Shown piece after piece: positions 18,783 to 44,234 of a stretch of DNA of 64,000 nt. Below the pieces are notes generated by a model. That model was given only the letters and a program-made list of their open reading frames with translations. It did not search any database and was not told the origin of the DNA. The DNA is from Methanomassiliicoccus luminyensis B10 (GTDB taxonomy: Archaea; Thermoplasmatota; Thermoplasmata; Methanomassiliicoccales; Methanomassiliicoccaceae): NCBI RefSeq assembly GCF_000308215.1, contig NZ_CAJE01000012.1:504894-568893 (forward strand), in the 5' to 3' direction. The translations under genes were made by a program, and so were the position numbers. The stretch's first letter is position 1. The number at the start of each line of letters is the position of its first letter.

Positions 18783-19240
18783 ACTAAATAGGGCATACTG
18801 AACATTCCATATATAAGCTGCGGTCAAGACATTTCATGGGCACATACCAAGCCCAGTAGAAGGAGGGCATTCCCAGGAATCGGTGTGATAAGCACCTCTC
18901 GGCTACCTTTTCGTTGGTATGCTGGGGAACAACAGACCTCAATCTATCATGAAATATTCGTATGTGCCCCCTGTGCGGCGGAGCACTAGACATTATTATT
19001 TTATTTAATATTATATGAATGAATATATCTGAATCAATTTATCTTTAACTTTCCGTGACGGGTCAAAAGTAAGTAGCAATCCTGCGGGCCGGATCATAGC
19101 CCCCTGCCCTCACTCATCAGCCAGAATGTGGCAACAGATAAAAAAAATAGAAGTTATGGCCAGTGGCGGTCTTTTTAGACCACACTAATCGAATGAAAAG
19201 ATGCGGTTAAGACTATGGTTGGTGGTCGATGTTCGTCATC

Positions 19241-24378: not shown

Positions 24379-24568
24379 GGGCGGGAGAACTGTCCTGTGC
24401 AATATTATCGCATGTTCCGTAGGTTAATGAAAATGACTAGTTCATCAAAAGATAAAGAGATACGAGGCAACAATGACATTTGATTGGCACGATAAAAATT
24501 GCAATGTCCTGCGATATGAAAAATGCTTATTCCTATCGGAAAATGATGAAATCTGACCAGGCGAAGAT

Positions 24569-27999: not shown

Positions 28000-30615
28000 A
28001 TGTCTCAGTATGAAGCAGTTCCTACGGAAAGGAAGTGGCAAGCGAAGTGGAAGGAGTGGGAGATCTACCGGTTCGACCCGAAATCCTCTGCCCCGGTCTA
28101 CAGCATTGACAACCCCCCGCGCTACACTTCCGGCTCCCTTCACCTTGGCCACGCTACAGGTTACTCGCTCATCGACTTCGCCGCGCGGTACCGGAGGATG
28201 CGCGGCTACAACGTCTTCTTCCCCCTGTGCTTCGACGTCAACGGAACCCCGACCGAGGTGAAGGTGGAGAAGAAGTACGGCATCAGCAAGCTGACCGTCC
28301 CCCGGCAGGAGTACATTCGGCTGTGCTCGGAGTTCGCCAACTCCTTCATCGCCGAGATGACCCGCCAGTTCGAGATCCTGGGAGAGAGCATGGACCCGTC
28401 CATCTACTACCAGACGGACGCCCCGTACTACCGCAGGATCACCCAGATCACCTTCCTCCGGCTGCTGGAGAGAGGGCTGGTGTACAAGGGCTCCTACCCG
28501 GTCAACTGGTGCCCCTGCTGCATCACCGCGCTGGCGGACGCCGAGGTAGAGTACGAGGACAACATCACCAAGCTCAACTACATCAAGTTCAAGGTGAAGG
28601 AGACGGGCGAGGACGTGCTGGTCGCCACCACCAGGCCGGAGCTGCTTTCCGCCTGCCAGCTGGTCGCGGTGCACCCCGAGGACAAGGACAAAGGGAGGCT
28701 GGTCGGGAAGACCCTTCAGACCCCCGTCTACGGGAAGGAGATCAAGGTCATCGCCGACGAGAAGGTCGACCCCGCCTTCGGCACCGGAGTGGTGATGATC
28801 TGCACCATCGGCGACAAGACCGACCTGGAATGGGTCATGAAGTACTCCCTGCCGCTGGACAAGGCCATCGACGAGCAGGGGAAGATGACCGCTATCGCTG
28901 GCAAGTACCAGGGTATGAGCGTCAAGGAGGCCAAGAAGGCCATCATCGAGGATATGAAAGAGCAGGGGCTCCTGGTCAAGCAGGAGGACACCAAGCAGAA
29001 CGTGGGCTGCTGCTGGCGCTGCCACGCCCCCATCGAGTTCCTCAAGGTGCCCCAGTGGTTCCTCAAGACCATGGACTACAAGGACGAGGTGCTGAAGCTC
29101 GCCGACCAGCTCAACTGGTACCCTGAGTTCATGAAGGTCCGCCTGCTGGACTGGGTCAACAGCCTGCAGTGGGACTGGGTCATATCGAGGCAAAGGTTCT
29201 TCGCCACCCCCATCCCGGTGTGGGAGTGCAAGGACTGCGGCTACGTGGTCCCCGCCCGTGAGGAGGACGCCTACGTTGATCCGACCGTGGACAAGCCCCC
29301 CATGGACCGCTGCCCCCTGTGCGGCGGAAAGCTGGTGGGATGCACCGACGTGTTCGACACCTGGATGGATTCCAGCATCTCCCCGCTGTACAACACTTTC
29401 TGGGGCCGGGACGAGGAGATGTTCAAGAGGCTGTATCCCATGTCCATGAGGCCCCAGAGCCACGACATCATCCGCACCTGGGCGTTCTACACCCTGCTGC
29501 GGTGCCACCTCATGACCGGGGAGAAGGCTTGGAGCGACATCATGATCCACGGGTTCATCATGTCGCCGGACGGGACGCCGATGCACTCCTCGCTAGGGAA
29601 TGTCATCGACCCGGTGCCTATCCTGGAGGAGTACGGCGCGGACGCCCTGCGCTACTATGCCTGCACCTGCGCCCTGGGCGAGGACAACGCCTTCCGGGAG
29701 AAGGACGTCATTCACGGGAAGAGGCTTTGCACCAAGCTGTGGAACATCGGCAAGTTCACTGGCATGGTCGTCAAGGAGAAGCCGGAGATGAAGGGGCTCC
29801 AGCCCATGGACCGCTGGATCCTCAGCAGATACTCCAAGGTGGTGGAGAAGGCCACCCAGTACTATGAGCAGTACTCCTTCGACAAGGCCATGAGGGAGAT
29901 CGAGGAGTTCGCCTGGCACGAGTATGCTGATCATTACCTGGAACTGGTGAAGCACCGCACCAGGGAGGGCGACGACGGGGTCCGCTTCACGCTCTACACC
30001 ATCACCCTGGGCATCGCCAAGATGCTGGCGCCCCTGCTGCCGCACGTCACCGAGGACATCTACCAGGACTTCGCCGAGCTCGACGGCGCGAAGAGCGTAC
30101 ACGTCTCGAAGTGGCCGGAGCCGGTGCTCATCTCCGAGGAGGATGAGAAGCGCGGCGACCTGGTCAAGGACGTGGTGTCCGCCATCCGCGCCTGGAAGGC
30201 TGAGAATAAGCTCCCCCTGAACAGGGAGCTGGAGCTTTTGGAGCTGGTCGGTCCGGCGGCCCTTTCGCTGAAAGGCTACGAGAGCGACATACTGGAGACG
30301 TCGAGGGCCAAGGACCTCAAGATCGTGGCCGAGGCCTCTCTGGAAGAGAAAGTGATGGCGGTCAAGCCGGTCAAGTCCAAGGTCGGGCCGACCTTCAAGG
30401 AGAAGGGCAAGGAGGTCCTGCAGCTGCTGGAGAAGGCGGACCCCCAGGAGGCCGCCGCCGCGCTGGACAAGGGCGGTCTTGAGCTGACCCTGTCCGACGG
30501 CTCCATGGTGACGCTGGACCCTAGCTTCGTAGAGGTGCAGAAGAAGCTGACCCTCGGCGGCAAGGCCGTCGACACCCTGCAGGTCGGGGATATCCTCATC
30601 GCCCTGAGCCCGTGA
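28000..30615 (+). CDS. valS: valine--tRNA ligase (class I aaRS; assignment Val vs Leu from KMSKS-like PMHSSLGN)
   Basis: 871 aa. HIGH-type motif (SGSLHLGHATGY), a CP1 editing-domain region and a KMSKS variant. The length fits archaeal ValRS. Confidence 0.7.
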   Translation: MSQYEAVPTERKWQAKWKEWEIYRFDPKSSAPVYSIDNPPRYTSGSLHLGHATGYSLIDFAARYRRMRGYNVFFPLCFDVNGTPTEVKVEKKYGISKLTVPRQEYIRLCSEFANSFIAEMTRQFEILGESMDPSIYYQTDAPYYRRITQITFLRLLERGLVYKGSYPVNWCPCCITALADAEVEYEDNITKLNYIKFKVKETGEDVLVATTRPELLSACQLVAVHPEDKDKGRLVGKTLQTPVYGKEIKVIADEKVDPAFGTGVVMICTIGDKTDLEWVMKYSLPLDKAIDEQGKMTAIAGKYQGMSVKEAKKAIIEDMKEQGLLVKQEDTKQNVGCCWRCHAPIEFLKVPQWFLKTMDYKDEVLKLADQLNWYPEFMKVRLLDWVNSLQWDWVISRQRFFATPIPVWECKDCGYVVPAREEDAYVDPTVDKPPMDRCPLCGGKLVGCTDVFDTWMDSSISPLYNTFWGRDEEMFKRLYPMSMRPQSHDIIRTWAFYTLLRCHLMTGEKAWSDIMIHGFIMSPDGTPMHSSLGNVIDPVPILEEYGADALRYYACTCALGEDNAFREKDVIHGKRLCTKLWNIGKFTGMVVKEKPEMKGLQPMDRWILSRYSKVVEKATQYYEQYSFDKAMREIEEFAWHEYADHYLELVKHRTREGDDGVRFTLYTITLGIAKMLAPLLPHVTEDIYQDFAELDGAKSVHVSKWPEPVLISEEDEKRGDLVKDVVSAIRAWKAENKLPLNRELELLELVGPAALSLKGYESDILETSRAKDLKIVAEASLEEKVMAVKPVKSKVGPTFKEKGKEVLQLLEKADPQEAAAALDKGGLELTLSDGSMVTLDPSFVEVQKKLTLGGKAVDTLQVGDILIALSP

Positions 30616-30713: not shown

Positions 30714-30789
30714 GCGGGCGTGGTGTAGCTGGTTATCACTTAACCTTGCCAAGGTTAGAACTCGGGTTCGAATCCCGACGCCCGCACCA
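30714..30789 (+). tRNA. tRNA-Gly (anticodon GCC)
   Basis: Manual fold. 7-bp acceptor stem GCGGGCG/CGCCCGC. Anticodon stem TAACC/GGTTA with loop TTGCCAA. T-arm TCGGG-TTCGAAT-CCCGA. Discriminator A plus an encoded CCA. Confidence 0.85.
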
Positions 30790-30940: not shown

Positions 30941-33061
30941 ATGGTAGGGATCGGAACCGTAATTGGAATTATAGCAGTCGTAGCAGTAGCGATATTCGCT
31001 TATTTTGGATTTTACCTGATCCAGGACAACCAGGTAGGAATCAAGCGAAGGAGGATGTTCGGGAAGGCCATGCCGCAGGGGCACATAATCGCCATTGACG
31101 GCGAGGTGGGCATTCAGGCAGACACTTTGATGCCCGGCCTTTACTGGAAGATGCCCATCGTCTGGAAGGTCGAGAAGGTCAATGTCATCTACATCAGCCC
31201 TGACTCCATCGGCGTGGTCAATGCCATCGACGGCGCCCCCATGCCCAAAGGCAGGGTGCTGGGCGACGAGGTGGATAGCAACAACTTCCAGGACGCCAAG
31301 CTGTTCCTGCAGAACGGCGGCATCAAGGGGCCGCAGGTGGCCATCCTGAGGCCCGGGGTGTACCGTATCAACACCGGTGCTTTCAACGTGACCGTGGCCA
31401 AGGCCACCAAGATCGGGGAGGAGATGATCGGAGTGGTCATAGCCGAGGACGGCAGGCCGCTGCCCTCGGGGTACCTCATCGCCCCCAAGCCCCCCGAGGC
31501 TGCGTCGCAGGAGTGCCCGTACGCGAGGACGCACAAGCACTTCACCGACGGGCAGGCCTTCATCGACTCCGGCGGGTACAGGGGAACGCAGCAGGAGTCC
31601 CTGCAGCCGGGTGTCTATTACATCAACCCGCTGTTCTTCACGGTGAAGCCCGTTAACATCCAGGAGGTGCCTCCGGGCTACGTCGCGGTCATCCGGTCCA
31701 ACATCGGGGTGGAGCTGGAATCGAAGCAAGGGGCCCCGAGCTTCAACACCGGGCAGGACGACATCACCACCCCGGTGCACGAGGAATCGGAGACGTTGCT
31801 GATCTCGGACAAGAACGTCCGCGGCATCTGGAAGGACCCGGTGGCGCCAGGCAAGTACAACCTGAACCCGCTGGCCTTCACCCCATATCTGGTGCCGACC
31901 AGCGCCATCACCATCGACTGGGCCAACGATCTCCAGAAGAGGCACGAGCCGGACTCGCTCAACAAGAAGACCGACGATTTCTTCAAGTTCAGCCAGCTAA
32001 AGGTCACCAGCTCCGACGCGTTCACCTTGGACGTGGACGTCAGGATGATCATCCGCATCAGGCCGGAGAACGCGCCGTTCGTCATCGCCAGGTTCGGCTC
32101 GGTGGAGAACCTGATCCAGCAGATCGTTCACCCCCTGATCGACTCGTCCTTCCGCAACAAGGCCGGGAACGAGAAGGCCATCGAGTTCATCAAGAGCAGG
32201 ACCAGGCTCCAGGAGGAAGCGCTCAACACCGCCAGGCTGGAGTTCGACAAGTACCACGTGGAAGCCCAGAACCTGCTGGTGTCGTACATCCTCGCTCCTC
32301 CCGAGCTCATGAAGACCCAGACCGACAAGGAGATCGCCGAGCAGCAGCTGGCCCAGTTCCAGAAGCAGGCCGAGGCCCAGGAGATGAGGAAGGACGTCAT
32401 GTCCAAGACCGCCCAGGCCGACAAGCAGGGCGAGGTGGTGGCGGCGCAGCTCTCCATTGAGATCGAGCGCAGCCGGGCCAATGCACGGAGGGAGTCCGCG
32501 GAAGGCGACAAAGCCTCTGCCATGATCATCGCCGAGGGCGAGAGCTACAAGCTGCAGAAGATGGCGGAAGGTGAGGCGGCCAAGATCAAGTCCATAGCAG
32601 AGGCGGAGGCCGCCAAGATCGAGATGACCGGCAAGGCGGACGGGGCCAAGATCAAGTACATCGGGGAAGCGGACGCCATGAAGGTCAAGTACATGGGCGA
32701 TGCCGAAGCGTCCCGCATCAAGGCAGTCGGGCAGGCCGAGGCCTATTCCGAGAAATCGGTCGGCGAGGGGCTGGCCGACGCGTTCAAGGCCCAAGTGGAG
32801 GCGATGGGGGGCGACAACATCGCCCGGCTGAAGATAGTGGAGGCCATCGCCGCCGGGAAGGTGCAGATCGTCCCCGAAATCCTGGTGTCCAGCAACGGGC
32901 CCAGCGGAGGCGGCAGCCTCGGCGATGTCCTGACGCTCCTATTCACCCAGAAGGTGGCGGAGGAGGCCAAGAAGGCCGAGGCCGCCAAGAAGCCGGAGAC
33001 GATAGACATCAAGAGCGCCGAGCTGCCCGTCAAGAAGCCCGAGGAAGCGGAAACCTTTTGA
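30941..33061 (+). CDS. flotillin-like SPFH/band-7 domain protein with long C-terminal coiled-coil/Ala-Glu-Lys repeat region
   Basis: N-terminal TM anchor, SPFH core, then ~250 aa of EA-rich heptad-like repeats (KIKSIAEAEAAKIEMTGKADGAKIKYIGEADAMKVKYMG...). Confidence 0.8.
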   Translation: MVGIGTVIGIIAVVAVAIFAYFGFYLIQDNQVGIKRRRMFGKAMPQGHIIAIDGEVGIQADTLMPGLYWKMPIVWKVEKVNVIYISPDSIGVVNAIDGAPMPKGRVLGDEVDSNNFQDAKLFLQNGGIKGPQVAILRPGVYRINTGAFNVTVAKATKIGEEMIGVVIAEDGRPLPSGYLIAPKPPEAASQECPYARTHKHFTDGQAFIDSGGYRGTQQESLQPGVYYINPLFFTVKPVNIQEVPPGYVAVIRSNIGVELESKQGAPSFNTGQDDITTPVHEESETLLISDKNVRGIWKDPVAPGKYNLNPLAFTPYLVPTSAITIDWANDLQKRHEPDSLNKKTDDFFKFSQLKVTSSDAFTLDVDVRMIIRIRPENAPFVIARFGSVENLIQQIVHPLIDSSFRNKAGNEKAIEFIKSRTRLQEEALNTARLEFDKYHVEAQNLLVSYILAPPELMKTQTDKEIAEQQLAQFQKQAEAQEMRKDVMSKTAQADKQGEVVAAQLSIEIERSRANARRESAEGDKASAMIIAEGESYKLQKMAEGEAAKIKSIAEAEAAKIEMTGKADGAKIKYIGEADAMKVKYMGDAEASRIKAVGQAEAYSEKSVGEGLADAFKAQVEAMGGDNIARLKIVEAIAAGKVQIVPEILVSSNGPSGGGSLGDVLTLLFTQKVAEEAKKAEAAKKPETIDIKSAELPVKKPEEAETF

Positions 33062-33818
33062 AACCCATTTTCTTTCTTATTTCTTTTTTGACCAGATAGC
33101 AAGGTTATTCTGGACAGGTGCCACTTCATAGAGAGTGTCCGCGACTGCTACACCGCGGGATGCGTGAAACCGCAGAAGTCAGTCGTCAGCCGCACCATGC
33201 TCAAGAAGACCTCAGGATCATATCCGTCCTCGAACGCCTCCCAAAGGCAGTTATGGGGCGCGAATCGTACCAGCCGATGACCTATTCCACTTTTCTTCTT
33301 TTTTTATCGAGGGGAGATTACGGAGCATCACTATATCCTGCGCGACCCTAGTCGCAGGGAGGTAACAATGCGGCATCAGGCATCCTCAGCCCGTTCCAGG
33401 TGAAGAATGTCAGCTTCGCCAACAGGGGGTCACGTCACCTATGGTGCGATTCGTGATCCCAGGCAAGGGTGACATAACGGGCGAAAAAATGATGGGTAGT
33501 TGCCTGGAAAGGCTGGCCAGGACATGCTGACAGAATATGAGCTGCCCGGAACGGGGACTCATTCATCCAAGTAGCGAGGATATGTTAGAAGACCAGCCTC
33601 GACGGCATCGATTCCCATGGGGCCACATAACTTCTTCCTGAACATGATAGCCTCCGCGCACCCCAATAAGCGAAGGGACCGTTACGGCGGCGACCTGAAA
33701 GGGAGGCTGACCCTGGCCAGATATAATGCAAAGCTAAAAAAATTCGGTTTCGATGAGACTCTTATCGAATCGCTGACATCTTTGTAATATATAAATAACA
33801 ACAATAAGGTTCTGGATT

Positions 33819-35498
33819 ATGGATTTCGATAGGAAGATATACTTTGGAGATTACAGGTGTACGAATCTCAAGAAGTTGGCAGCATACATCGAGGAGCTGA
33901 ACGAAACAATCGAGCCGTTGTTCGATGCGCACCCTTTATTTAAGGGAGAGTACGCACTCGATTACTACGAATATTTGAGTAGATGTGAGTTGAACAGCGA
34001 ACCTATCGAACCCAAAAAGGTGTTCGAGTACATCGCTCCACTATACTCGAATCTTCCAGATTGGCGCAATCCGGGAACCATGATTAATGTTATCCCAGCC
34101 GTTAATCTAGTTTCAGCGGCCACATCTAGTGTCACTCAGATGTTCAATCCGAATTTTGCTCAGGACACGTATTCCGGAAACCTCACACTTGCCGAACTCG
34201 AGTCTGTCAAGTATCTTTCGCAGATAATCGGATGGGACTGGGAGAAGAGTTGCGGTGTGTTCACTTTCGGAGGCACGGGAACTAACATGTACGCCACGAA
34301 GCTTGCATTATGTAACGCCGATGCAGAGTCTGGAAAGTACGGGGCAGTCAAGGGAAGGTACTTCACGCTTACCAGCAAGAATGGTCATCCAACTCATTAC
34401 CAGATCTGTGACTGGCTTGGGATCGGGAGCGACAGCTGCATCGAGATTGAATGCAATCCCGACGGAAGGATTAATGTTTCCGAAGTGAAAAGGGTCATCC
34501 GCGAGAACATCGAGGTTGGGAGGACATTTCTCGGCTACAATATGACTGGCGGAAGTACCAACGAGCTTATCGTGGATCCGATTAAGGAGATCTATGACCT
34601 CAATGACGAGATAGTGAAAGATTACGACCTGCCGTACAAGCCCATGATCCATGTGGATTCGGTGTTGGGTTGGATATTCTTGTTTTTCAGATATTACGAC
34701 TTCGAAAAGAATCCTAATGATTATCCAGATGATGTCTTGAAACGGATTAAGTCCATGTACGACCATGTTTTCGAGTTTAAATATGCCGATACATTGGGCG
34801 TTGATTTCCATAAGACTGGTTTCTGCCCATATATCACCAGTGCGTTTGTGGTGAAGGACCGGTCCAAATTCTTTAATCTCAACCCGTCCACTTCGATCGA
34901 TTTAAAGGATATGAAGTATGGGGATTACAATCCATTCTACACATCGTTGGAGTACTCCAGAACGGGTGTCGGACCTATGGCTGCACTTACGTGTCTAAAG
35001 TCGCTAGGCACCAATTCATTCTGTAAATTGGTGGGCGATCTTGTTTTGGCGACACACATTTTCAGGAAGAGATTGAAGGACAACCCGCATGTGTTCATGC
35101 TCAGTGATGGGTCGGAAGGATTTGCTACACTGTTCCTTCTCGTTCCACCTAGGTACGGAAAACTGACATATAGTACGGTCTTTAGTCTTACTGATGGGCA
35201 GACCAAGGAAATCAAGGATTACAATACCAGGTATGGGAAGTTCGTCCTTCGCGAATGTATAGAAAGAAAAACTAATTTCTTATTCACATCTTCCAGAAGC
35301 TATACGTTGCCTGGGACTGATATAAAGATAGGCGCCATCAAGGCATATCCATTTTCGATATTCCTTACAGAAGAGAATGCCGAGGTATTGGCCAAAGAGG
35401 TTGGTGAAAGCATCCAGAGATTTACAGACCAAGATGGCGATCAGGCATGCACTAGAGACGAGTATTTTGTGGACATGACAACTGCGGGCAAGAAGTGA
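33819..35498 (+). CDS. PLP-dependent group II amino-acid decarboxylase-like protein (559 aa)
   Basis: Conserved decarboxylase lysine context (LGVDFHKTGFCPY) and an upstream GTGTNMYA region. Confidence 0.65.
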   Translation: MDFDRKIYFGDYRCTNLKKLAAYIEELNETIEPLFDAHPLFKGEYALDYYEYLSRCELNSEPIEPKKVFEYIAPLYSNLPDWRNPGTMINVIPAVNLVSAATSSVTQMFNPNFAQDTYSGNLTLAELESVKYLSQIIGWDWEKSCGVFTFGGTGTNMYATKLALCNADAESGKYGAVKGRYFTLTSKNGHPTHYQICDWLGIGSDSCIEIECNPDGRINVSEVKRVIRENIEVGRTFLGYNMTGGSTNELIVDPIKEIYDLNDEIVKDYDLPYKPMIHVDSVLGWIFLFFRYYDFEKNPNDYPDDVLKRIKSMYDHVFEFKYADTLGVDFHKTGFCPYITSAFVVKDRSKFFNLNPSTSIDLKDMKYGDYNPFYTSLEYSRTGVGPMAALTCLKSLGTNSFCKLVGDLVLATHIFRKRLKDNPHVFMLSDGSEGFATLFLLVPPRYGKLTYSTVFSLTDGQTKEIKDYNTRYGKFVLRECIERKTNFLFTSSRSYTLPGTDIKIGAIKAYPFSIFLTEENAEVLAKEVGESIQRFTDQDGDQACTRDEYFVDMTTAGKK

Positions 35499-36343
35499 AT
35501 AATGTGAAGAACGATGCTTTGATGAATAATTTGTCCGAAGAGATACAGCGCCTGAAAGATTACTTGTTGAACGATTTGTTTTCATTGAAAATCACGTGTA
35601 TCACTGCATTCGGCAACTGTGTCCGTAACGCGACCACAGTGCCGAATTATTCGGACGTGGACATCGTAGCTTATTCGGATATGGTGAGCTATGAGAACAT
35701 AGACCTGATACTGAGGACGATTTACGGATCATACAAAGATTTCTGTGATAAACCGCCGAGGTTTATCACAGACTCCATAGCTCCTCGCATAGAATGGTTT
35801 ATGCGGATTAATGATGTCAAATTTGATCTCAATCTCATGCCCACCTATCTCCCCGGATATGAAAGGATGATGGTCGATCCAGTCCATGATACGGTCGATA
35901 TAATTATTGGAGCGATGTATCTGAATGCAATAACGCTCCATGGGGAGATACCATTCAGGCAGCTCGTCGAATCGGAGATGATTCCATTTTATAATGATGA
36001 GCTGAGGCTTAACAGGATGAAGATACTGGGGGGGAGGATTGATGAACAATTGAGCATAATCGAAGGCATTCAGGACGGTGATGGCGAGAATGTGTTGTAT
36101 TACACATTCAAAACCCAGGCATATGTGACAAAATGGATTTTCATCGCTTGTCGTAAGTACCCTCTCGATGCCCAAAGGCATCTCGGAACGCAGCTCGCAG
36201 GACTGGAATGTATGTCTTCGGAGGAGATTGAGAGCATTATGTTGAAGAACGGTGAGAATATAAAGGCGATTGTTTGGAATTTCATCAAAGGAACGAGAGA
36301 AGTCATGATTAGGTTAGGCAGACCCTCAGAGGTCGAAGAATGA
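35495..36343 (+). CDS. putative nucleotidyltransferase (Pol-beta-like NTase fold)
   Basis: GN/GS-x(9-13)-DxD-like motif (FGNCVRNATTVPNYSDVDIVAY). Translationally coupled to neighbours (4-nt overlaps). Confidence 0.45.
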   Translation: MNNVKNDALMNNLSEEIQRLKDYLLNDLFSLKITCITAFGNCVRNATTVPNYSDVDIVAYSDMVSYENIDLILRTIYGSYKDFCDKPPRFITDSIAPRIEWFMRINDVKFDLNLMPTYLPGYERMMVDPVHDTVDIIIGAMYLNAITLHGEIPFRQLVESEMIPFYNDELRLNRMKILGGRIDEQLSIIEGIQDGDGENVLYYTFKTQAYVTKWIFIACRKYPLDAQRHLGTQLAGLECMSSEEIESIMLKNGENIKAIVWNFIKGTREVMIRLGRPSEVEE

Positions 36344-37218
36344 TTGTAGAGCATGAATATGACGGAAAAAAGGTATTCATACTAGCTTGTTCCAGTTGCA
36401 ATGTTGTTTGCAAACATTGCTACATCAATTTTAAAGGTGATATGGGCCTAGAGAAACTTGTAACGACCATATACGCTCTCAAAGATAGATATGTGCTCAA
36501 TATCACTGGAGCGGAACTGCTGATTGATTCTGAATACGTTCGGAGAATAACTGAATCCAATCAGAAAGGGTTTATGACTAACGGTCTCGCTCTTTATAAG
36601 AACGTCAATCTGTTGGATAAACTCTTAGAATGGGGCGTGAAATACGTGGCCCTTTCATACCACCATATGGTTCAGGAAGAGTATTCACCCATTCCAAAAT
36701 ACAAGGTGGAATGGGTGATTAAGGAATTGATAACAAGAAGAATAGACGTGAGCCTTATGTCCACAGTGACGAAGGTAAACTATGACAAGATTGACGATGC
36801 CTGCAGAATCGCAGAATCGCTCGGGGCCAAAAGGATACATTTCACCAATTTCACGGCGCAGGGCAATGCTCGTAAGATATCTGACATGTGGAAACTGAAT
36901 GATAAGGAGATTCAGGTATTTTTTGAGAGATATCGCGAATGTGTGGAGAACTATCCAAATCTCATTGTGGAGAAGTGTTGCAGTTTCGGTAAAGATGTTA
37001 ACGAGCCCTGTGCACAAGTATGTGCTGCTGGAAAGGACAAGGTCGCGATCACTCCTGATGGAAACGTATATCCCTGTTTCTTCCTTGCCGAAAAAGGAAA
37101 TGAGATCGGGCGTTTCGATAATGGCATTATAACCATCTTCCGTGAGATCGACTGGGATGGGACAGATTGTCTTTCGAAGCGTGTTCTCAACTACAACGGG
37201 GCGCTAAATTATAAATGA
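36340..37218 (+). CDS. radical SAM enzyme with C-terminal SPASM/twitch-like Cys-rich domain
   Basis: CSSCNVVCKHC contains Cx3Cx2C. A C-terminal CAQVCAAGKDKVAITPDGNVYPCFF motif is present. Confidence 0.8.
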   Translation: MIVEHEYDGKKVFILACSSCNVVCKHCYINFKGDMGLEKLVTTIYALKDRYVLNITGAELLIDSEYVRRITESNQKGFMTNGLALYKNVNLLDKLLEWGVKYVALSYHHMVQEEYSPIPKYKVEWVIKELITRRIDVSLMSTVTKVNYDKIDDACRIAESLGAKRIHFTNFTAQGNARKISDMWKLNDKEIQVFFERYRECVENYPNLIVEKCCSFGKDVNEPCAQVCAAGKDKVAITPDGNVYPCFFLAEKGNEIGRFDNGIITIFREIDWDGTDCLSKRVLNYNGALNYK

Positions 37219-37432
37219 ATGTTGTCTGAGCGGTTTCATGCGCCCGTTTCACATGGATGAGAATCCTTCTTGACGCAATTGGTAGCGATGGGATATCAGG
37301 ATACGACTCACCAGTCACGGGGTCCAAGGTGGCGCGATATTTGCCTGATTTAATCCGAGATATTATATGGCAATAGATGGTGATGCCTCTTAGCAAACCT
37401 TTTTTCATTATCTATCATTCTGGAGTTAGGGA

Positions 37433-38212
37433 ATGAGAAGAATCGCTATCTATGGCAAGGGCGGCATAGGGAAGTCTACGACAGCATCCAATATTTCCTC
37501 GGCATTATCTGAAGTTGGATTGAAAGTGATGCAGATTGGGTGTGACCCCAAAGCTGATTCAACCCGAATATTGACGCATGGAAAAATACCGACGGTACTC
37601 GATGCTCTCTACAGCAAAGGTCATCCTGAACTGAAAGACATAATATTCGAAGGAGACAATGGAATCCTTTGTGTGGAATGCGGTGGGCCGCGTCCTGGAG
37701 AAGGATGCGCTGGCAGGGGGATAATCGCCGCGTTCGAGAAGATCGAGGAGCTTAAAGCTGTTGAGGCATACAAACCAGACGTAATATTGTACGATGTCCT
37801 CGGTGATGTGGTCTGTGGCGGCTTTGTCATGCCGATACGTAATGGGTATGCAAAGGATGTGTTTGTGATATCCTCGGGCGAGATGATGTCGCTTTATGCT
37901 GCATCAAATATAATCAGTGCCGTCAATACCATGTCGTACATGGGCTATGCCAAATTCGGAGGCATCATTCAGAATTCACGCGGCATCGTGAATGAGGATG
38001 CGATTGTGAATAAGGTTGCCGTGGAGATGGGGGCCGATGTAATCTATAGGCTCCCTAGGAGTCCAGTGGTCCAATCCTGCGAGAATGCTGATAATTCTGT
38101 CGTTTTTGGTGCACCGCAATCATACATGGCTTCGGCATACAGAGAATTATCTAAAGTTATCTTGAAACGCACCGAAGATATTGCTGGAAAAATGAAACTT
38201 TGTATTCAATAA
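37433..38212 (+). CDS. NifH-like ATPase/Fe protein homolog (CfbC/BchL/NifH family)
   Basis: Walker A (IYGKGGIGKSTT), switch regions, and both [4Fe-4S] Cys ligand motifs (CAGRG, VCGGF). 259 aa. Confidence 0.85.
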   Translation: MRRIAIYGKGGIGKSTTASNISSALSEVGLKVMQIGCDPKADSTRILTHGKIPTVLDALYSKGHPELKDIIFEGDNGILCVECGGPRPGEGCAGRGIIAAFEKIEELKAVEAYKPDVILYDVLGDVVCGGFVMPIRNGYAKDVFVISSGEMMSLYAASNIISAVNTMSYMGYAKFGGIIQNSRGIVNEDAIVNKVAVEMGADVIYRLPRSPVVQSCENADNSVVFGAPQSYMASAYRELSKVILKRTEDIAGKMKLCIQ

Positions 38213-39132
38213 TGTCCGATGGTAAGATGGTTCCCGTGGAAGACAGAAACCCCAGGATATATGCAAAATGTGCGATTGCAATGCCGTTCTTGGCTAGTAG
38301 ACACACACAAGCTTTGGAGCTGTGCATGAAGTCGATTCTGAGATACGGTCCCGAATCCATGGACATATTCATATCTGTGGATGCTAAAGGGTCTGTATCT
38401 GACATATTTCCGAAGGAAAGAATCCAGTCCATCAGCGATAGGATAAATATCATCCCTCTTGATGATAAAAATTACAAGCAGGCGTTGCTAAATTACATGG
38501 CATCGCTGGATTATGACTACACATATGTAATCCATAGTGATGTTTTCTTTACGGGAAATAAGGCCTTAAATAAGCTTTTGAAAGCATTGGTAGATAAGTC
38601 GGATGCTGTGTTGAGTTACTATGATGTTCCGTTATGCATACATGAAAGTACCTATCATATGAGCGGGGAGTCCAAACGTAAATACGTGTTGTCTCCGCGC
38701 GTCAGTACATGGATTATGTGTTTCAATGTTGGAAATTACAGAAAGATAAAGAAGAAATACGGTATGAAGATTGATTTTGTCCGTGTATGGATGAATCTTA
38801 ATGACGATTACTTCGAAGAATACAATCAGTGGATGAGGAGCCAGAAAGAATTTGATTTGATATATAGCTCCTTTCCGTTCGATGAGTATATGGTGGATAT
38901 CGGCGGACTCATTAAATACCAGATAGACACGGGGAACGTAAATGGAGTGTCCGTTGGTTCGGAGTCTAATCCGGATTTCAACTCCATGAATCTGAACAAA
39001 AGGTCCGACGAGTATGTCCATATTGAACAATTTGATCCATCGCGTTACAATGATAGATTGTATTCCAAGGGTTTGTTAGATACGAGGGCCAATCAGATAA
39101 AAGATTACATGAAGAGAAACTACCCGGAGTGA
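38200..39132 (+). CDS. hypothetical protein (possible GT-A-like fold), island-specific
   Basis: 310-aa ORF between the NifH-like and NifD-like genes, AT-rich codon usage, no motif confidently recognised. Confidence 0.4.
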   Translation: MYSIMSDGKMVPVEDRNPRIYAKCAIAMPFLASRHTQALELCMKSILRYGPESMDIFISVDAKGSVSDIFPKERIQSISDRINIIPLDDKNYKQALLNYMASLDYDYTYVIHSDVFFTGNKALNKLLKALVDKSDAVLSYYDVPLCIHESTYHMSGESKRKYVLSPRVSTWIMCFNVGNYRKIKKKYGMKIDFVRVWMNLNDDYFEEYNQWMRSQKEFDLIYSSFPFDEYMVDIGGLIKYQIDTGNVNGVSVGSESNPDFNSMNLNKRSDEYVHIEQFDPSRYNDRLYSKGLLDTRANQIKDYMKRNYPE

Positions 39133-39136
39133 GTTA

Positions 39137-40381
39137 ATGTACTGCGAGCCATTCAAATCATGTTACTTATTCGGTTCGCTTAGAATCGTGTCGAATTTCA
39201 AGAATTGTGTTTATCTGATCAATGGACCTTCAGGATGTGCCTTTTTCTGTAGGAACTCTGTTTTGTTGCTCAATGGATACACACATATGCCTTATTCAGT
39301 GAATCTGCCAAGGATATTTACCACCAATCTGACTGATAAGGATGTGGTGTTCGGTTCCACAGATAGATTGGAAGAGGATGTGCTGGAGATCGATGTCAAA
39401 TACAATCCAGATGCCATATTTATTTTCAATTGTTGTGTTTCTGAGATTATCGGCATGTATATTGAAGATTTGGAGAAGAAACTAGAAAAAATAACGAAGG
39501 CTAAGATTATTGCTGTTCCAAGCGCCGGCTTTAAAGGGGATCATAAGATAGGCATGAAGGTTGCGAATAAAAAAATCTTCGAAAAGGTCGTTAAGCGCCC
39601 CACTATGAAGGTTCCGTATTCGGTCAATATACTTGGCGATGCGGATAGATTTGGGCACACGACGAAAGAACTCAGGTCATTCCTAGATGAAAACAACATC
39701 AGCATCATCACCAGTATCCCCGGAGATGTGGATATGAAAAGTGTCTCGGAATCATCCGAGGCGTCCTTGAATATCATCGTTTGCGGTACTGCGGGATATG
39801 GTATGGCCAAACTTTACTTAGAGGAATATGGCGTCCCGTTCGTGGGAGGTCAATCGTCGGTATTCGGAATTAATCACACGTTCGAACTTTACAAAGCAAT
39901 ACTCGACCACTTCGGTAAGTCCTTGGATGACCTGGAACAAAGAAGACAGACTGCATTTGATAACATCAGAAGATTCAGAACAGAATTGTCAGATAAGAAA
40001 GCATTCATCATCGCGGGTGCACGCAGATCCTTTGGATATGCCGCTCTTTTGAAAGAGCTTGGGATGTCGGTGGAATACATATTCACGGAATCTAATGATT
40101 GTGTTCTGAGGGAAGAAGATGCCCTGAGAATGATATCTAAACAAATAATATATGATGAATGGGATGAAGAGTTACGTAACCGTATAAGAATGAAAAGGCC
40201 GGATCTGGTTCTCTCCACGCTGCCGGAGTTGATCATTCCTGAAAAATACGTCTCCAGGACACTAGATGATTTTGCTGGATTCTCCGGTGCAGAGAGATTT
40301 GCCCAGTATATCTACGATACGATAATATTGCAAAAAATGGAAGAAGTAGTATTCATCCGGGCCAAGGATGACAATCTCTGA
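39137..40381 (+). CDS. nitrogenase component 1-type oxidoreductase (NifD/NifE/CfbD/BchN-like)
   Basis: INGPSGCAFFC and FNCCVSE Cys motifs in a ~410-aa alpha/beta Rossmann-like repeat architecture. Confidence 0.8.
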   Translation: MYCEPFKSCYLFGSLRIVSNFKNCVYLINGPSGCAFFCRNSVLLLNGYTHMPYSVNLPRIFTTNLTDKDVVFGSTDRLEEDVLEIDVKYNPDAIFIFNCCVSEIIGMYIEDLEKKLEKITKAKIIAVPSAGFKGDHKIGMKVANKKIFEKVVKRPTMKVPYSVNILGDADRFGHTTKELRSFLDENNISIITSIPGDVDMKSVSESSEASLNIIVCGTAGYGMAKLYLEEYGVPFVGGQSSVFGINHTFELYKAILDHFGKSLDDLEQRRQTAFDNIRRFRTELSDKKAFIIAGARRSFGYAALLKELGMSVEYIFTESNDCVLREEDALRMISKQIIYDEWDEELRNRIRMKRPDLVLSTLPELIIPEKYVSRTLDDFAGFSGAERFAQYIYDTIILQKMEEVVFIRAKDDNL

Positions 40382-40396
40382 CTAGCATCGTTCAAT

Positions 40397-41038
40397 TCAG
40401 AGGAGGTCTTGAAGAGAATTGATGCATGTGCATCCTGTCAATTCTTTGCAAAAGATTCCACTCAGGCGATTTATAATGACGCAATCAATGTTCGCATACG
40501 CTGATGCCATAACGTCTTCTTGCTCATTTCCTACATAAACAGTACGCTTTGCATTATACGTCTCATATAGTCCCATGCATTTTAAAATTGGAGAGGGGTC
40601 GGGTTTGTGAATCTCAGTGTCTTCGAATCCGATTATGTGGTCAACGTATTGAATCATGTTATCTCGTCTCAATAATTCTTCGACCTTCCATCTTTTTTTA
40701 CCTGTGACTATGGAAACGTTCTTGCCCAACGATTTTAGGGATTTCAGAACCATTAACGAATCGGGGAAAGGCACGGATTTCAGATATGAATCACAGACGA
40801 CTTCGTTGAAAATTTTCATGTATGTTTCAGTCTCTGTCCCTCCCAGCCCGTAATATCCGCATATATACTCTGGGGATTTTCCAATGAACTCCGGCACCAT
40901 ATCCTCAGAAAGATAGATATTCATACCGTCAAGCGCCAATCTCAGAACGTGGTACACATCCATGATTTTATCATACAAAGTGTAATCGAAATCGAACAGA
41001 TATGTATCGTACTTCTGCATAAGAGTTATACTCCTTAT
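40397..41038 (-). CDS. HAD-superfamily hydrolase/phosphatase
   Basis: The start is taken at MQKYDTYLFDFDYTLYD (a DxDxT motif 8 aa from the N-terminus). Downstream motif pattern is KxxxxxxxxGNEQEDV. An AGGAG RBS lies upstream. Confidence 0.65.
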   Translation of the reverse strand: MRSITLMQKYDTYLFDFDYTLYDKIMDVYHVLRLALDGMNIYLSEDMVPEFIGKSPEYICGYYGLGGTETETYMKIFNEVVCDSYLKSVPFPDSLMVLKSLKSLGKNVSIVTGKKRWKVEELLRRDNMIQYVDHIIGFEDTEIHKPDPSPILKCMGLYETYNAKRTVYVGNEQEDVMASAYANIDCVIINRLSGIFCKELTGCTCINSLQDLL

Positions 41039-41063
41039 ATCCAAAAATATATTTGGCGCATAG

Positions 41064-42791
41064 ATGCGACCTAAGTTGAACTTCGAATTATTGAAATCCA
41101 ATCTATTGACCATAGCATCCATAACAGGTATAGATTCGTTTGTCGTTCGCGGCAAGTATAGCATTTATCTCCTGTCCCAGGATGTTGCAGATGGTATGAT
41201 AGATATCATTGTGAAACCACATATCTTCAATTATTGTGTGGAATCGCTCCCACGCAATGATATCGGTTGTTTTCGGTATCAGATGTGCTTTAGAGGTCGC
41301 AGATATGATGCAGTTCAAATAAAGATCCCATGTGCGATTGTACGGTTGATCGCCATGGATGATGATACGGACTATTGTCTAATAAATTATGATGTGTGTT
41401 CAATAAAGTATCCTTCGATGGAAATCGAAAACGTATGCGAGTTGAAAGAAGAGTGTCATATACTACCGGGCGATATCTGTCCTCTTCCTGGAAGTCCGTT
41501 TGAAATCATTCGAAGAATCATCGGGTCTGCTTTTATATCCGACACAGAGGAATCTGAAGACAACATAGTACGTTGCATCGAATCCGTTTTACAGATGGCA
41601 TCGTTTCGTAAGATATGTGACGAATATTTTGATTTGATAGCTCCGCTGAACTGTTTGGAAATGATATGTAGCTGTAGATACTTGGGAGACTGTTCGATGC
41701 GCGATCTGTTGATCCACATCATTCGTAAGATCATTCCAAAAGCTGACATATCGTTTGTGTCGGACTATATAGATAATATGAAATCGGAACGCACAATTGG
41801 TGCTATTCCGAGCCCGGATTTTGAAGATACAGATTTCTTATTCATACTAGATCGCATGTATGAAATATTTAAGAAGGGCAATGTGGATTGCTATGAGAAT
41901 CTTTGTTTAAGATTCGCCCACATATCCGGCATCGATTCCAAATCCGAAATCCGCTCTGTGGGAATTGGACATTCTGACGACCTCAAATTCGAAGTAGTGA
42001 ACGGAAATGAACACTCCTTTGTGCGAGTATGTACGGGCGTATCTGAGAAGAGACTCGAATGCATCAAAGAGCTGTCTTCTAGAAATGGTGAAGGGAAGCT
42101 GACGGATGTTATTCGTATCAAAAATCTAGACGTATTGGTTTTTGAATGGATCGACGGAAGGTCTGTTCGCGATGTGATGAATGGAACAACAAATCGCGAG
42201 CATTTTTACTGGGGTTATAGATCAGGAATTAAACTGAAGAAACTACACGAAATCCCATTATTCGCTAAACCTGATGTTAGTAATTTCGTGAAAAGTCTGA
42301 ATGATTTGCTCGACCGCTGCAGGTATTTTTCAGAAGCTATTCCAGGCTATGATAGAATAGTGTCTCGTATACACCAGTACTTACCCAAAATAACAGAAGC
42401 TGATTTTGCTATTTGTCACGGAGATTACAATGTTGACAACATACTTGTCTCCAATCAGGAGTTAATGGTGATAGATTTCGAATATTCCCGGATTGGAAGT
42501 GTATATGAAGATGTGGACACCTTGATGCTATTTGATGGATACGATCCTTACTTCTCTGCAGGTATGATCTATGGATATTGTGGCGGATTCGGAGATCAAA
42601 GCTTTTGGAGAAATTTATCATTCTATCACAATGTTTACCTGTTGAATTATTACTGTAGGACATTCGTATATAATTACGGCAACATGGCATTATTACATCG
42701 AGTCGATGAATATAATTACAAATATTGCGAGGATGGGCAAGGAGTCCCGGGGTGGTTCGTCAAAATCCTCGATGAAATGGCATTGCTATGA
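41064..42791 (+). CDS. aminoglycoside/choline-kinase-like phosphotransferase (APH fold) with ~270-aa Cys-rich N-terminal region; start uncertain
   Basis: C-terminal catalytic motifs (ICHGDYNVDNILV and MVIDFEYSRIG). Confidence 0.6.
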   Translation: MRPKLNFELLKSNLLTIASITGIDSFVVRGKYSIYLLSQDVADGMIDIIVKPHIFNYCVESLPRNDIGCFRYQMCFRGRRYDAVQIKIPCAIVRLIAMDDDTDYCLINYDVCSIKYPSMEIENVCELKEECHILPGDICPLPGSPFEIIRRIIGSAFISDTEESEDNIVRCIESVLQMASFRKICDEYFDLIAPLNCLEMICSCRYLGDCSMRDLLIHIIRKIIPKADISFVSDYIDNMKSERTIGAIPSPDFEDTDFLFILDRMYEIFKKGNVDCYENLCLRFAHISGIDSKSEIRSVGIGHSDDLKFEVVNGNEHSFVRVCTGVSEKRLECIKELSSRNGEGKLTDVIRIKNLDVLVFEWIDGRSVRDVMNGTTNREHFYWGYRSGIKLKKLHEIPLFAKPDVSNFVKSLNDLLDRCRYFSEAIPGYDRIVSRIHQYLPKITEADFAICHGDYNVDNILVSNQELMVIDFEYSRIGSVYEDVDTLMLFDGYDPYFSAGMIYGYCGGFGDQSFWRNLSFYHNVYLLNYYCRTFVYNYGNMALLHRVDEYNYKYCEDGQGVPGWFVKILDEMALL

Positions 42792-43043
42792 TTGAGGAGC
42801 AGTCATAGCAATGCCATTCGGGTTTGTAATACTGTTCTATCATTATTCAGGCAGATATGCCCGATCGGATATGCCAGGGCCAGTTATGCAATTCGCTAAA
42901 GGCAACTGGGAATCATCTTTAACATGCCATCAAATTCATATACACTGAAGAAAAGGAGAGTTAGCGACCCGTGGACGTATGCTAAGGGACAGAGTCCCTG
43001 CCTAGCAGAATCACATACTTGGGATCGCGGATGGCTTGAGCCC

Positions 43044-44234
43044 TCACTCCACGCCCCTCACTCTGAGGGCGTCGTGGAGCAGGGAGTTCCCGTCGCACCG
43101 GAAGCAGTGATTGTCCGTACCGGGCGGCACTCCGGCCGACTTCACTATGTCAGCCGCTTCGAGCATCGTCTCGACATACCACTCGCTCGACGGGGCCCGA
43201 TGGCCTTCCAGCTTCGAGCCGGGGTTGGGCGCCCACACGAACGGCAGGACGTTCGCGCCGATGGAGGACAATTCCCTTATTCCTTCCAGGAAGGTCTTCT
43301 TCGGCTCCAGTCCCGCTACGAATACGGCCCATGCGTTGCCCTCGCCGAAGATGTCCACGGCGTGCTTGACCGACTGCACGAACTCGTCGTGGCTGACGCT
43401 CTTGGACTTCCCGGGGCACACGGCCTTGTACATCTTCTCGTCCCAGATCTCAAGGCTGAAGCCTATGCCGTTGATGCCCGAATCATAATACTTCTGGAGG
43501 TCCTCCTTCCTCTTGGCCGGGGAAGGAAGGATAGTTCCGGGCACGCGCTCGCGCCCGATGTGCTCGGCGATGGAGCCGACAATACGGGAAACAAGTTCGA
43601 TCTCCTTCTGGGAGTTCAGGCACCCTCCCGTCATCATGATGTGCTTCGTCTCTCCCTCCCTGAACGCCTCGGCGGCCACCTCCCCGATGTCCTGGGGGCT
43701 CTTCTTCCGCATGACCGAGTCGTAGGTGTCCGAGGTGGACACCAGATTGCAGAACAGACATTGTTCGTCCCTGGCGAAGTGGCTGCAGTAGTTCTGGTAA
43801 CAGAAGAACAGGCAGTCCGCCCCGCCGAGCTGCCCGATCCTCACCATGTCATGGCCGGACGAGGTCTTCTTGCTATAGAACTCCGGCTGGGGGAGCCATT
43901 TTACCGTGCACAGGTCCTCCTTCCCATTGCTCAACACGAGCTTCCCGTCCCTGAGGTCTATGAGATAGGGAGAGCGGCGGTTCTTCCGGAACTGTACGAT
44001 GGTGCCGTCGGGGAGCTCGAAATCATCCGGGACCGCCAAGTCCACGTGGTTCTCGAAGTCCCAACCGAACAGGCCGTGGTTCTGGGCCTTGTACGATGTA
44101 CCCACTCCCTGCAGGGCCGCGGGGGTGGCCTCCAGGCCCACGGTGAGAAGCTCCGCCTTGATCTCCAAATACTTCGTGCCGCTATTCTCGAACAGGTCGG
44201 TGTTGCTGTGACCCAGGTAATCGGTGTTGCTCAT
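43044..44234 (-). CDS. hypothetical Cys-rich protein (CLFFCYQNYCSHF...CLFC; radical-SAM-like or metal-binding), co-oriented with corrinoid protein and MtaA-like methyltransferase
   Basis: 396-aa ORF with coding-like composition, whereas the plus-strand overlap ORF is not. Cx3Cx4C-x7-CxxC cluster plus an MMTGGC glycine-rich stretch. Confidence 0.5.
   Translation of the reverse strand: MSNTDYLGHSNTDLFENSGTKYLEIKAELLTVGLEATPAALQGVGTSYKAQNHGLFGWDFENHVDLAVPDDFELPDGTIVQFRKNRRSPYLIDLRDGKLVLSNGKEDLCTVKWLPQPEFYSKKTSSGHDMVRIGQLGGADCLFFCYQNYCSHFARDEQCLFCNLVSTSDTYDSVMRKKSPQDIGEVAAEAFREGETKHIMMTGGCLNSQKEIELVSRIVGSIAEHIGRERVPGTILPSPAKRKEDLQKYYDSGINGIGFSLEIWDEKMYKAVCPGKSKSVSHDEFVQSVKHAVDIFGEGNAWAVFVAGLEPKKTFLEGIRELSSIGANVLPFVWAPNPGSKLEGHRAPSSEWYVETMLEAADIVKSAGVPPGTDNHCFRCDGNSLLHDALRVRGVE

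Follow-up and report, generated by a model that had tools for sequence, protein, structure and literature searches.

A 64,000-nt stretch of the genome of Methanomassiliicoccus luminyensis B10, a methanogen of the human gut (contig NZ_CAJE01000012.1, positions 504,894 to 568,893, forward strand), here termed the window, was found to carry a block of eight genes at ~33.7–42.9 kb with an overall G+C content of 0.42, compared with 0.60 in its flanks. Among the products of this island are a NifH-type Fe protein (NflH) and a single NifD/NifE-like subunit (NflD). The favoured reading, to which a rough probability of 55% is given, is that the island is a horizontally acquired mosaic of gut-bacterial (Firmicutes-like) origin and a specialised-metabolite cluster, built around a member of a nitrogenase-superfamily clade that is apparently undescribed. 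Related loci are referred to by the labels L001–L027, of which L011 is Blautia glucerasea, L012 a Bacilli metagenome-assembled genome (MAG) and L009 a sister of L011. The features of the island and its borders are given below by window position. The eight open reading frames (ORFs) are those listed in the initial annotation of this DNA, and all of its domain assignments were upheld by Pfam and NCBIfam (that of the nucleotidyltransferase via its relatives).

33,060–33,750 (~690 bp), no strand: non-coding spacer of intermediate G+C content (0.49–0.58) separating the host Band-7/SPFH gene from the island
33,819–35,498, plus strand: pyridoxal phosphate-dependent group II-type decarboxylase, 559 aa, WP_019177189.1 (PF00282, 45 bits; DFHK lysine motif)
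35,495–36,343, plus strand: Pol-beta-type nucleotidyltransferase (NTase), 282 aa (GN...DVD motif; 35–38% identity to the decarboxylase-adjacent NTases of L018–L022)
36,340–37,218, plus strand: small radical SAM/SPASM (twitch) enzyme, 292 aa (PF13186 and PF04055, weak but consistent; CxxxCxxC)
37,433–38,212, plus strand: NflH, NifH-type ATP-dependent Fe protein, 259 aa (PF00142, 280 bits)
38,200–39,132, plus strand: orf310, predicted GT-A-fold transferase (RefSeq models of 298 or 306 aa)
39,137–40,381, plus strand: NflD, single NifD/NifE-like predicted catalytic subunit, 414 aa, WP_081579851.1 (PF00148, 224 bits)
40,397–41,020, minus strand: HAD-IA phosphatase, 207 aa from M49, RefSeq WP_026068848.1 (PF13419, 97 bits; DxDxT just past M49)
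41,064–42,791, plus strand: APH/choline-kinase-type small-molecule kinase (PF01636, 54–55 bits; kinase domain at 41,697–42,791)
42,776–42,818, plus strand: hairpin with a 19-nt stem, an inverted repeat of 95% complementarity overlapping the kinase stop codon

The initial annotation had proposed an AT-rich foreign block, and computation showed that the composition of the region is indeed not uniform. In 500-nt windows the G+C content falls from 0.60–0.65 in the flanks to 0.38–0.49 over ~33.5–43.0 kb, and in 1-kb windows the island has a mean of 0.425 (maximum 0.470) against 0.602 ± 0.045 outside it. The G+C content at third codon positions (GC3) is 0.41–0.55 in the eight island genes versus 0.68–0.91 in twelve host genes. 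Of the two borders proposed, 33,100 and 42,900, the right one stood (~42,920, shortly 3' of the hairpin), while the left one had to be moved to a sharp edge at ~33,700–33,750 (100-nt resolution). When the island proteins were clustered at 90% identity, every one of them was found in M. luminyensis alone, NflD being 100% identical to an M. luminyensis protein. Given the contrast in G+C content and GC3, this restriction to one species, the bacterial and metagenomic origin of the nearest relatives and the nesting of NflD in a bacterial family, the block is foreign DNA which was acquired horizontally. It is no artefact of assembly, since two assemblies have it, in contigs of 765 and 786 kb.

The block had also been described as neither phage nor transposon, and a domain search of the island revealed no sign of an integrase, a transposase or a capsid protein. 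The flanks were searched for direct repeats as had been suggested, and none were found. Insertion beside a tRNA gene at an att site was considered and rejected, with tRNA-Gly, the one tRNA gene present, lying 2.3 kb off beyond a host gene and repeats being absent. The hairpin would be a terminator-like end of the island. In the spacer at the left border the longest ORF does not exceed 77 aa, and neither Pfam nor Rfam gave a match; candidate explanations are a decayed gene, a regulatory region and the scar of an insertion.

NflH and NflD both belong, by sequence, to the nitrogenase superfamily, the former having the P-loop and two cysteines of an Fe protein and the latter a full-length predicted PF00148 fold. 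NflH matches the NifH of Clostridium pasteurianum with 239 bits, with the GKGGIGKST P-loop and the cluster cysteines of the CAGRG and VCGGF motifs aligned, and shares 40–45% identity with its counterparts in related loci. Residues 9–396 of NflD match positions 1–398 of the 399 in the PF00148 profile. The extra NifH and NifD/K-like pair with intact ligands seen in the initial annotation is thus present, and both proteins appear to lie outside every curated family of the superfamily. For NflD the NCBIfam scores (with cut-offs) were 162 (505) for NifE, which is the best curated model, 130 (654) for nifD, 88 (490) for BchB, 53 (420) for BchN, 46 (268) for CfbD and 27 (425) for BchY. For NflH they were 314 (402) for CfbC, again the best model, 297 (394) for nifH, 187 (345) for BchL and 165 (331) for BchX.

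When 5.8 billion protein clusters were searched, ~38 were found to be related to NflD at 34–46% identity, after which identity drops to 26% or less. Members derive mostly from gut and other metagenomes. Among 185,579 species genomes three members were found (34–39% identity), namely Blautia glucerasea MSK.18.94, a Lachnospiraceae MAG and a Bacilli MAG (in the last, L012, the NflD frame is split between 9,941–10,240 and 10,134–11,192 by a frameshift or sequencing error). No copy of the family was found on catalogued plasmids, where the matches were limited to rhizobial nifE/nifD at ~26% identity. Identity to characterised proteins is low (23–25% to NifD, NifE and VnfD; 23% to Bradyrhizobium NifE), and against solved structures NflD scored 71–107 bits to NifD, NifEN and MarD, with BchN and CfbD no closer. 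In a neighbour-joining tree the family forms one clade on the D/E side, apart from NifD, VnfD, NifE, the K/N types and a fused NifH/NifE-like protein of the host, and the M. luminyensis NflD nests among bacterial sequences. The family therefore appears to be monophyletic and apparently represents a nitrogenase-superfamily clade not described before. Literature on nitrogenase-like proteins in connection with ribosomally synthesised peptides that carry post-translational modifications (RiPPs), natural products, Lachnospiraceae or aminoacyl-tRNA synthetase self-resistance was found, as far as it could be searched, to hold no description of it.

In NifD, the P-cluster is held on the alpha-subunit side by Cys62, Cys88 and Cys154, and Cys275 serves as a ligand of the cofactor. 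In HMMER alignments the family invariants C9, C34, C99/C100 and C216 align with NifD C62, C88, C154 and C275, respectively, and the position of NifD His442 is occupied by Ala or Phe. In its predicted ligands, as in its profile scores, NflD appears to resemble NifD and NifE rather than the [4Fe-4S] tetrapyrrole reductases.

The bacterial relatives of NflD travel with a 263–272-aa radical SAM protein, which by sequence is a bona fide minimal NifB. It scores 80–265 bits on TIGR01290 (cut-off 344) over model positions 10–276, remaining below the cut-off because the NifX-type C-terminal part is missing, and it aligns over its full length with solved archaeal minimal NifBs at 202 bits (6Y1X) and 182 bits (7BI7/7JMA). 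Its invariant cysteines (C9, C28, C32, C35, C108, C255 and C258) include the HxCF, CxxxCxxC and C-terminal CxxC motifs, the last followed by RADA in most members. In all bacterial and metagenomic loci examined, one D-type gene and one NflH gene were found and no second PF00148 gene of the K type. The radical SAM enzyme of the island was considered as the missing NifB and rejected, having no similarity to these partners and no NifB among its NCBIfam matches.

The combination differs from the nitrogenase-like (NFL) systems described so far. In a recent review (2026, PMC13474568) these are divided into Nfa (group IV-A); CfbCD (IV-B), which is homomeric with a [4Fe-4S] cluster and no NifB; methylthio-alkane reductase (MAR, IV-C), with D and K subunits, NifB and an L-type cluster; isethionate reductase (ISR, IV-F), with D and K subunits and a truncated NifB; DPOR (BchLNB) and COR (BchXYZ) (V); and Group VI, without NifB or Cys275. 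None of the groups listed there has the make-up of the NflD family, which may fall within the uncharacterised IV-D or IV-E, clades for which the review gives no composition. The known reactions are N2 fixation, three tetrapyrrole reductions, C-S cleavage by MAR and isethionate cleavage, and the functions of the remaining clades are regarded as the field's main challenge (PMC13474568). The pairing seen here, of a CfbD-like, presumably homomeric subunit with a nitrogenase- or MAR-like NifB and cofactor cysteine, has not been reported.

It had originally been suggested that the cluster matures or decorates a tetrapyrrole-like cofactor, attaching a phospho-amino-alcohol arm in a manner analogous to the aminopropanol-phosphate/nucleotide-loop branch of cobamide biosynthesis. 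DPOR, COR, CfbCD and, as proposed, Group VI all act on tetrapyrroles (PMC13474568), the methanogen host uses both F430 and corrinoids, and a methylcobamide:CoM methyltransferase (MtaA) gene lies 2.4 kb downstream of the island. CfbCD in particular resembles the island pair in combining a homodimeric Fe protein with a homomeric D-type component without K, in occurring in methanogens, and in providing the best model for NflH. However, no tetrapyrrole or corrinoid gene was found in ~12 related neighbourhoods, a result which speaks against both the tailoring role and the cobamide analogy. NflD scores 46 bits for CfbD and 27–88 bits for BchY, BchN and BchB versus 162 for NifE, and its family has both the Cys275 equivalent and an accompanying NifB, in contrast to every tetrapyrrole NFL system known. 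CfbD holds one [4Fe-4S] cluster through two cysteines per subunit and does not need NifB (PMC13474568). The island lacks an F430 context, and the true cfbCD genes of the host are found with cfbE at a separate locus. The MtaA gene has host-like G+C content, and the decarboxylase and NTase are widespread without Nfl genes. DPOR and COR differ further from the island in that it has a single D-type gene and no bch genes. Group VI of Elusimicrobia, for which a tetrapyrrole-type function was proposed and of which about one third consists of NflH and NflD only (PMC13474568), has neither NifB nor Cys275/His442 and varies in its P-cluster cysteines; it is set apart here by description only. A tetrapyrrole role is thus considered very improbable.

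MAR offers a parallel in ligands. Like MarBHDK, the NflD family combines an Fe protein with a NifD-like subunit carrying the P-cluster cysteines and a Cys275 equivalent, does not belong to an N2-fixing system, and in its bacterial members (not in the window island) has a dedicated NifB homologue without a NifX domain. A MAR- or ISR-like NflBHD could accordingly cleave a C-S, C-P, C-N or similar bond of a gut metabolite and so free an assimilable element, with the kinase, phosphatase and decarboxylase processing the substrate. In favour of such nutrient scavenging, a dedicated NifB homologue is otherwise found among NFL systems only in MAR and ISR, and a pst/pho phosphate-uptake operon directly adjoins L009. 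The sister locus L011, however, does not share that neighbourhood, and neither sulfur or sulfonate metabolism nor matching uptake transporters recur in Nfl loci. MAR lies amid sulfur-assimilation genes, whereas the neighbours of the NflD family are of biosynthetic type (AMP-binding/peptidyl carrier protein (PCP), B12-radical SAM, methyltransferases, ABC-2 exporters, GT-A and PqqD) alongside aminoacyl-tRNA synthetases. MAR is a D2K2 enzyme and ISR likewise a DK heterotetramer, while the NflD family has D only, and NflD scores just 71 bits to MarD. MarD also uses His429 as a second ligand, for which the NflD family showed no invariant His counterpart other than H136 in GFKGDH. Scavenging is on balance judged unlikely.

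Parallels also exist with the cofactor assembly line of nitrogenase. NflD is NifE-like, with Cys at position 275 and without His442, and the bacterial trio of minimal NifB, NflH and NflD mirrors NifB-NifEN-NifH; the Nfl loci nevertheless have no NifN partner and no NifDK recipient, identity is 23%, and the neighbourhoods are unrelated to nitrogen fixation. The Mo, V and Fe nitrogenases differ in that NflD loci are devoid of K, E and N genes and His442 is absent.

The neighbourhoods of NflD relatives point to biosynthesis. The recurrent Nfl-linked set consists of NflH, the GT-A protein, NflD, the radical SAM/SPASM enzyme and the APH kinase. The GT-A gene recurs in L012, L023/L024, L026 and L027 (directly after NflH in L012, L023/L024 and L026), in L003, L026 and L027 the APH kinase neighbours either NflH or the GT-A gene, and radical SAM/SPASM genes recur in L004, L012 and L023. 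The closest relatives of the window NflD have an ABC-2 exporter, a B12-radical SAM protein, an adenylation/PCP protein and methyltransferases alongside. One locus has a polyprenyl synthase with a TrpD-like protein, and the Blautia locus has a TrpD-like protein, a U32 protein and an anthranilate-synthase/chorismate-mutase. In the same Blautia locus (L011, 12,983–16,299) the U32-family protein adjoins the chorismate-binding/chorismate-mutase fusion and a GATase gene. U32 enzymes are prephenate-dependent anaerobic hydroxylases, and O2-independent hydroxylation of an aromatic intermediate may thus take place in the L011 cluster's pathway.

Other loci contain a glycosyltransferase, an aminotransferase, APH, PHP, an Asn-synthase and an adenylating enzyme (L003), radical SAM/SPASM with NeuB/CMP-sugar genes (L004), or a sugar-1-P nucleotidyltransferase with an epimerase, APH and GT-A (L026/L027). 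Gene content of this kind would also suit decoration of the cell envelope, in which a phospho-amino-alcohol or sugar-phosphate head group is put on a surface glycan or lipid by the GT-A protein, kinase, NTase, decarboxylase and HAD phosphatase, with NflHD supplying an unusual reduced building block. In the island, however, neither a flippase nor a polymerase is encoded, nor any membrane protein or undecaprenyl- or dolichol-linked enzyme, LicD and LicC gave no Pfam matches, and the aminoacyl-tRNA synthetase, PCP/adenylation, B12-radical SAM and PqqD neighbours are not of envelope type. Envelope decoration is regarded as quite unlikely.

Modification of a ribosomal peptide by the radical SAM/SPASM enzyme, the GT-A protein and NflBHD was also weighed. 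In L023 and L024 a radical SAM/SPASM gene, followed by a PqqD-like protein of the RiPP-recognition type and a methyltransferase, is situated directly after NflH and GT-A, and the window radical SAM/SPASM enzyme is homologous to that of L023 (27% identity over 243 aa, E 1e-14). Peptide glycosylation by GT2-type enzymes occurs in glycocins, and an AgrB/47-aa pair adjoins NflD in L005. No convincing precursor peptide, however, was found in the intergenic regions of the window or in L023, where the small ORFs are repeat copies. PqqD occurs in one architecture only (27 bits versus a TIGR03859 cut-off of 46), and it is missing from the window, as are a protease and an exporter. Non-peptide substrates are also used by small SPASM/twitch enzymes, and the top NCBIfam matches of the island enzyme were tungsten-cofactor maturase, NirJ, MoaA and AhbD. 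With no credible short ORF in the island and no PqqD in the window, assignment to a RiPP cluster is not supported, and a pathway of this kind is held to be improbable. The L023 repeats are a separate observation: two ~150-bp GC-rich copies (~4,464–4,650 and 12,865–13,017) surround the ThrRS-NflB-NflD-NflH-GT-A-radical SAM-PqqD-methyltransferase block, translate to similar spurious peptides ('...CNPRLR.AA.PL.V') and are possible mobile-unit boundaries.

A further feature of the bacterial loci is the presence of aminoacyl-tRNA synthetases (aaRS). Full-length aaRS genes lie directly beside the Nfl core in 6 of ~10 distinct architectures: HisRS with a HisZ-like protein in L001, ThrRS in L004 and L023, MetRS in L011, ProRS in L012 and ArgRS in L027. 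Set against ~22 aaRS per ~3,000-gene genome, a binomial estimate, itself rough, gives a probability below 1e-4, and by this rough estimate the adjacency is far above chance. An extra aaRS copy is a classic self-resistance marker of antibiotic clusters, examples being mupirocin/IleRS, borrelidin/ThrRS and albomycin/SerRS. The Nfl loci are like these in that a full-length aaRS adjoins a biosynthetic core, but unlike them in that the specificities vary (His, Thr, Met, Pro, Arg) and the archaeal island itself carries no such gene. The aaRS and tRNA are matched in L012 only (ProRS/tRNA-Pro), L001 having tRNA-Leu beside its HisRS-like genes. No T-box or riboswitch was detected at the aaRS-linked loci, with no Rfam match apart from two tRNAs. 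In L012 the ProRS adjoins tRNA-Pro(UGG), and the Nfl cluster (5,717–17,606), which also includes a RelA/SpoT homologue, is located between a large serine recombinase and a type IV secretion system coupling protein; it is likely carried on an integrative conjugative element.

The island genes had been treated as a single unit. Neighbourhood comparison showed that they are not one conserved cassette, as the decarboxylase and NTase form a separate module. The decarboxylase family has >1,600 homologues (up to 56% identity) in Clostridia, Bacilli, candidate phyla radiation bacteria and others, and in L018–L022 it always adjoins the NTase, with no Nfl genes nearby in the loci sampled. The pair is therefore an independent, widespread two-gene module and the island a mosaic. 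The window NTase has no direct Pfam match, and the NTase partner of the decarboxylase in L018 passes PF01909 (27 bits, cut-off 21). The pair looks like an uncharacterised conserved module. In L018–L020 (3,994–9,680) it is found beside a type-2 (MupA/B-like) IleRS and sugar-nucleotide genes, and in L021–L022 (800–9,683) beside a RelA/SpoT-type HD protein, Tpt1/KptA, PHP and a radical SAM-PHP fusion. A defence-system reading based on the NTase, HD, Tpt1 and PHP neighbours was examined and dropped, as PADLOC returned nothing meaningful; for the island itself its models gave only weak generic radical-SAM/viperin and P-loop matches.

The remaining island genes can be described more briefly. The decarboxylase, NTase and radical SAM genes overlap by 4 nt each, NflH and orf310 overlap by 13 nt, and 4 nt separate orf310 from NflD. 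The 310-aa product of unknown function in the initial annotation is a predicted GT-A-fold transferase according to an alignment-based AlphaFold run. A word-indexed search returned orf310 itself alone, while an exhaustive HMMER search revealed its family, with ~15 relatives at 29–37% identity. The HAD phosphatase, whose longest ORF extends to 41,164, was not seen in related loci. The kinase is recorded in two forms, of 364 aa (RefSeq, 41,697–42,791) and 575 aa. Its N-terminal extension (41,064–41,696), which begins 43 nt from the divergent HAD start, comprises 211 codons with 15 Cys and has no Pfam match or recognisable domain. It is probably coding, as it is free of stops where, by a rough estimate for DNA of 40% G+C, ~13 would be expected by chance.

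On these observations a mechanism can be outlined for the favoured specialised-metabolite cluster. NflH would act as a NifH-type homodimeric ATPase with a [4Fe-4S] cluster that passes low-potential electrons to NflD. Because it has no K partner, NflD should form a homomer, holding an inter-subunit cluster through three P-cluster-type cysteines, and two sets of three at the homomer interface would give the same number as the P-cluster holds. Since the NifB partner is obligatory in bacteria, the site at Cys216 (the Cys275 equivalent) is suggested to hold a second, NifB-derived complex Fe-S(-C) cluster, and may be likened to those for FeMo-co, NifB-co and the [Fe8S9C] cluster of MAR. The cofactor would come from the co-encoded minimal NifB in bacteria and, in the archaeon, from one of the two host nifB products in trans. 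NflHD would then carry out a difficult ATP-driven reduction of a small molecule, possibly a peptide, with the GT-A transferase, APH-type kinase and radical SAM/SPASM enzyme processing the same substrate. The island extras, that is, the independently mobile decarboxylase and NTase pair and the HAD phosphatase, would act on this substrate as well. The pathway logic would be that of a specialised metabolite with phospho-, glycosyl- or nucleotidyl-intermediates, and we infer both the natural-product role and the substrate class from the gene content.

More tentatively, and rather doubtful when taken as a whole, this nitrogenase-like clade may form the core of specialised-metabolite clusters in gut anaerobes whose products are linked to aaRS, with a carbide-containing cluster as the probable cofactor and the archaeon running a NifB-less copy on its own machinery. 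The aaRS would, in that case, be either targets, present as self-resistance copies, or suppliers of aminoacyl-tRNA, a suggestion which is equally speculative.

Several points weigh against the specialised-metabolite reading. The island has no NifB, aaRS, exporter or regulator of its own, so that the archaeon either borrows a host NifB or has an inactive system, and the island copy may be incomplete or inactive; supply in trans by the host NifB is conjecture. The lack of a K gene is the whole basis for the suggested homomeric assembly of NflD. The sugar-nucleotide enzymes, GT-A, kinase and HAD phosphatase fit cell-surface glycan decoration equally well, and the adjacency to aaRS could reflect something besides self-resistance. 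Most of the related loci are short metagenomic contigs. Lastly, the neighbour-joining tree carries no support values and contains no CfbD, BchN/Y, MarD, IsrD or Group VI references.

The first of these points leads to the possibility that the island is a relic, a decaying and functionless partial copy of a bacterial cluster that has lost NifB, aaRS and other parts. It lacks the NifB-like, PqqD, aaRS and exporter genes of its relatives, is found in one species, and has 690 bp of non-coding DNA at its left border. Against decay, however, each of the eight ORFs is intact and reaches the full length of its family, the catalytic and ligand residues are conserved, the genes are translationally coupled, the 211-codon extension is stop-free and the host has two nifB genes. 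A relic is accordingly thought rather unlikely, and the specialised-metabolite cluster continues to be preferred.

The host is otherwise well equipped with nitrogenase-type genes, possessing nifHI1I2DKEN, an anf cluster, cfbCD elsewhere and the two nifB copies (Borrel et al., 2014, PMC4153887). A second nitrogenase-like set is present in the window itself at 20,894–24,378 on the plus strand, where a 731-aa NifH-like/NifD/E-like fusion is followed by a 451-aa NifN/BchB-like protein, both with near-host composition. The fused nifH/nifE is uncharacterised and is conserved in Methanomassiliicoccales, some Firmicutes and Deltaproteobacteria (PMC4153887). No NifB was found near this set (20.9–24.4 kb). 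Low-GC patches (0.43–0.50 versus 0.60) occur at 18,000–19,500 and 24,000–25,200, the latter covering a 216-aa ORF (24,569–25,219) with a weak methyltransferase match; these may be extra small insertions of foreign DNA to either side of the fused NifH/E locus.

The flanks of the island encode archaeal ValRS, GlyRS, MtaA/CmuA and thiamine genes. Host aaRS and tRNA genes are found up to 20 kb upstream (ValRS 28,000–30,615; GlyRS 13,455–15,161; tRNA-Gly 30,714–30,789) and have host codon usage; their position upstream of the island is likely due to chance, the ValRS gene, 3.2 kb away, having host composition. A variant radical SAM gene (43,044–44,234, minus strand; NF045502, 358 bits) of host G+C content abuts the right edge. 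Another NF045502 member (175 bits) was found inside the Bacilli MAG Nfl cluster (L012, 12,023–13,168), adjoining NflH. A functional tie between the island and the abutting gene was considered and set aside as probable coincidence, given 23% identity to the L012 member and the host-like composition.

The island represents a clear case of inter-domain transfer, and the NflD family bears on the evolution of heterotetrameric complex-cluster enzymes from homomeric ancestors. Cultured carriers are available in Blautia glucerasea MSK.18.94 and M. luminyensis B10. The occurrence of the family in biosynthetic clusters of differing content in human-gut Firmicutes, its association with aaRS and the archaeal copy suggest new reductive chemistry in microbiome natural products. 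If the specialised-metabolite reading is true, secondary metabolism would thereby gain its first nitrogenase-like enzyme.

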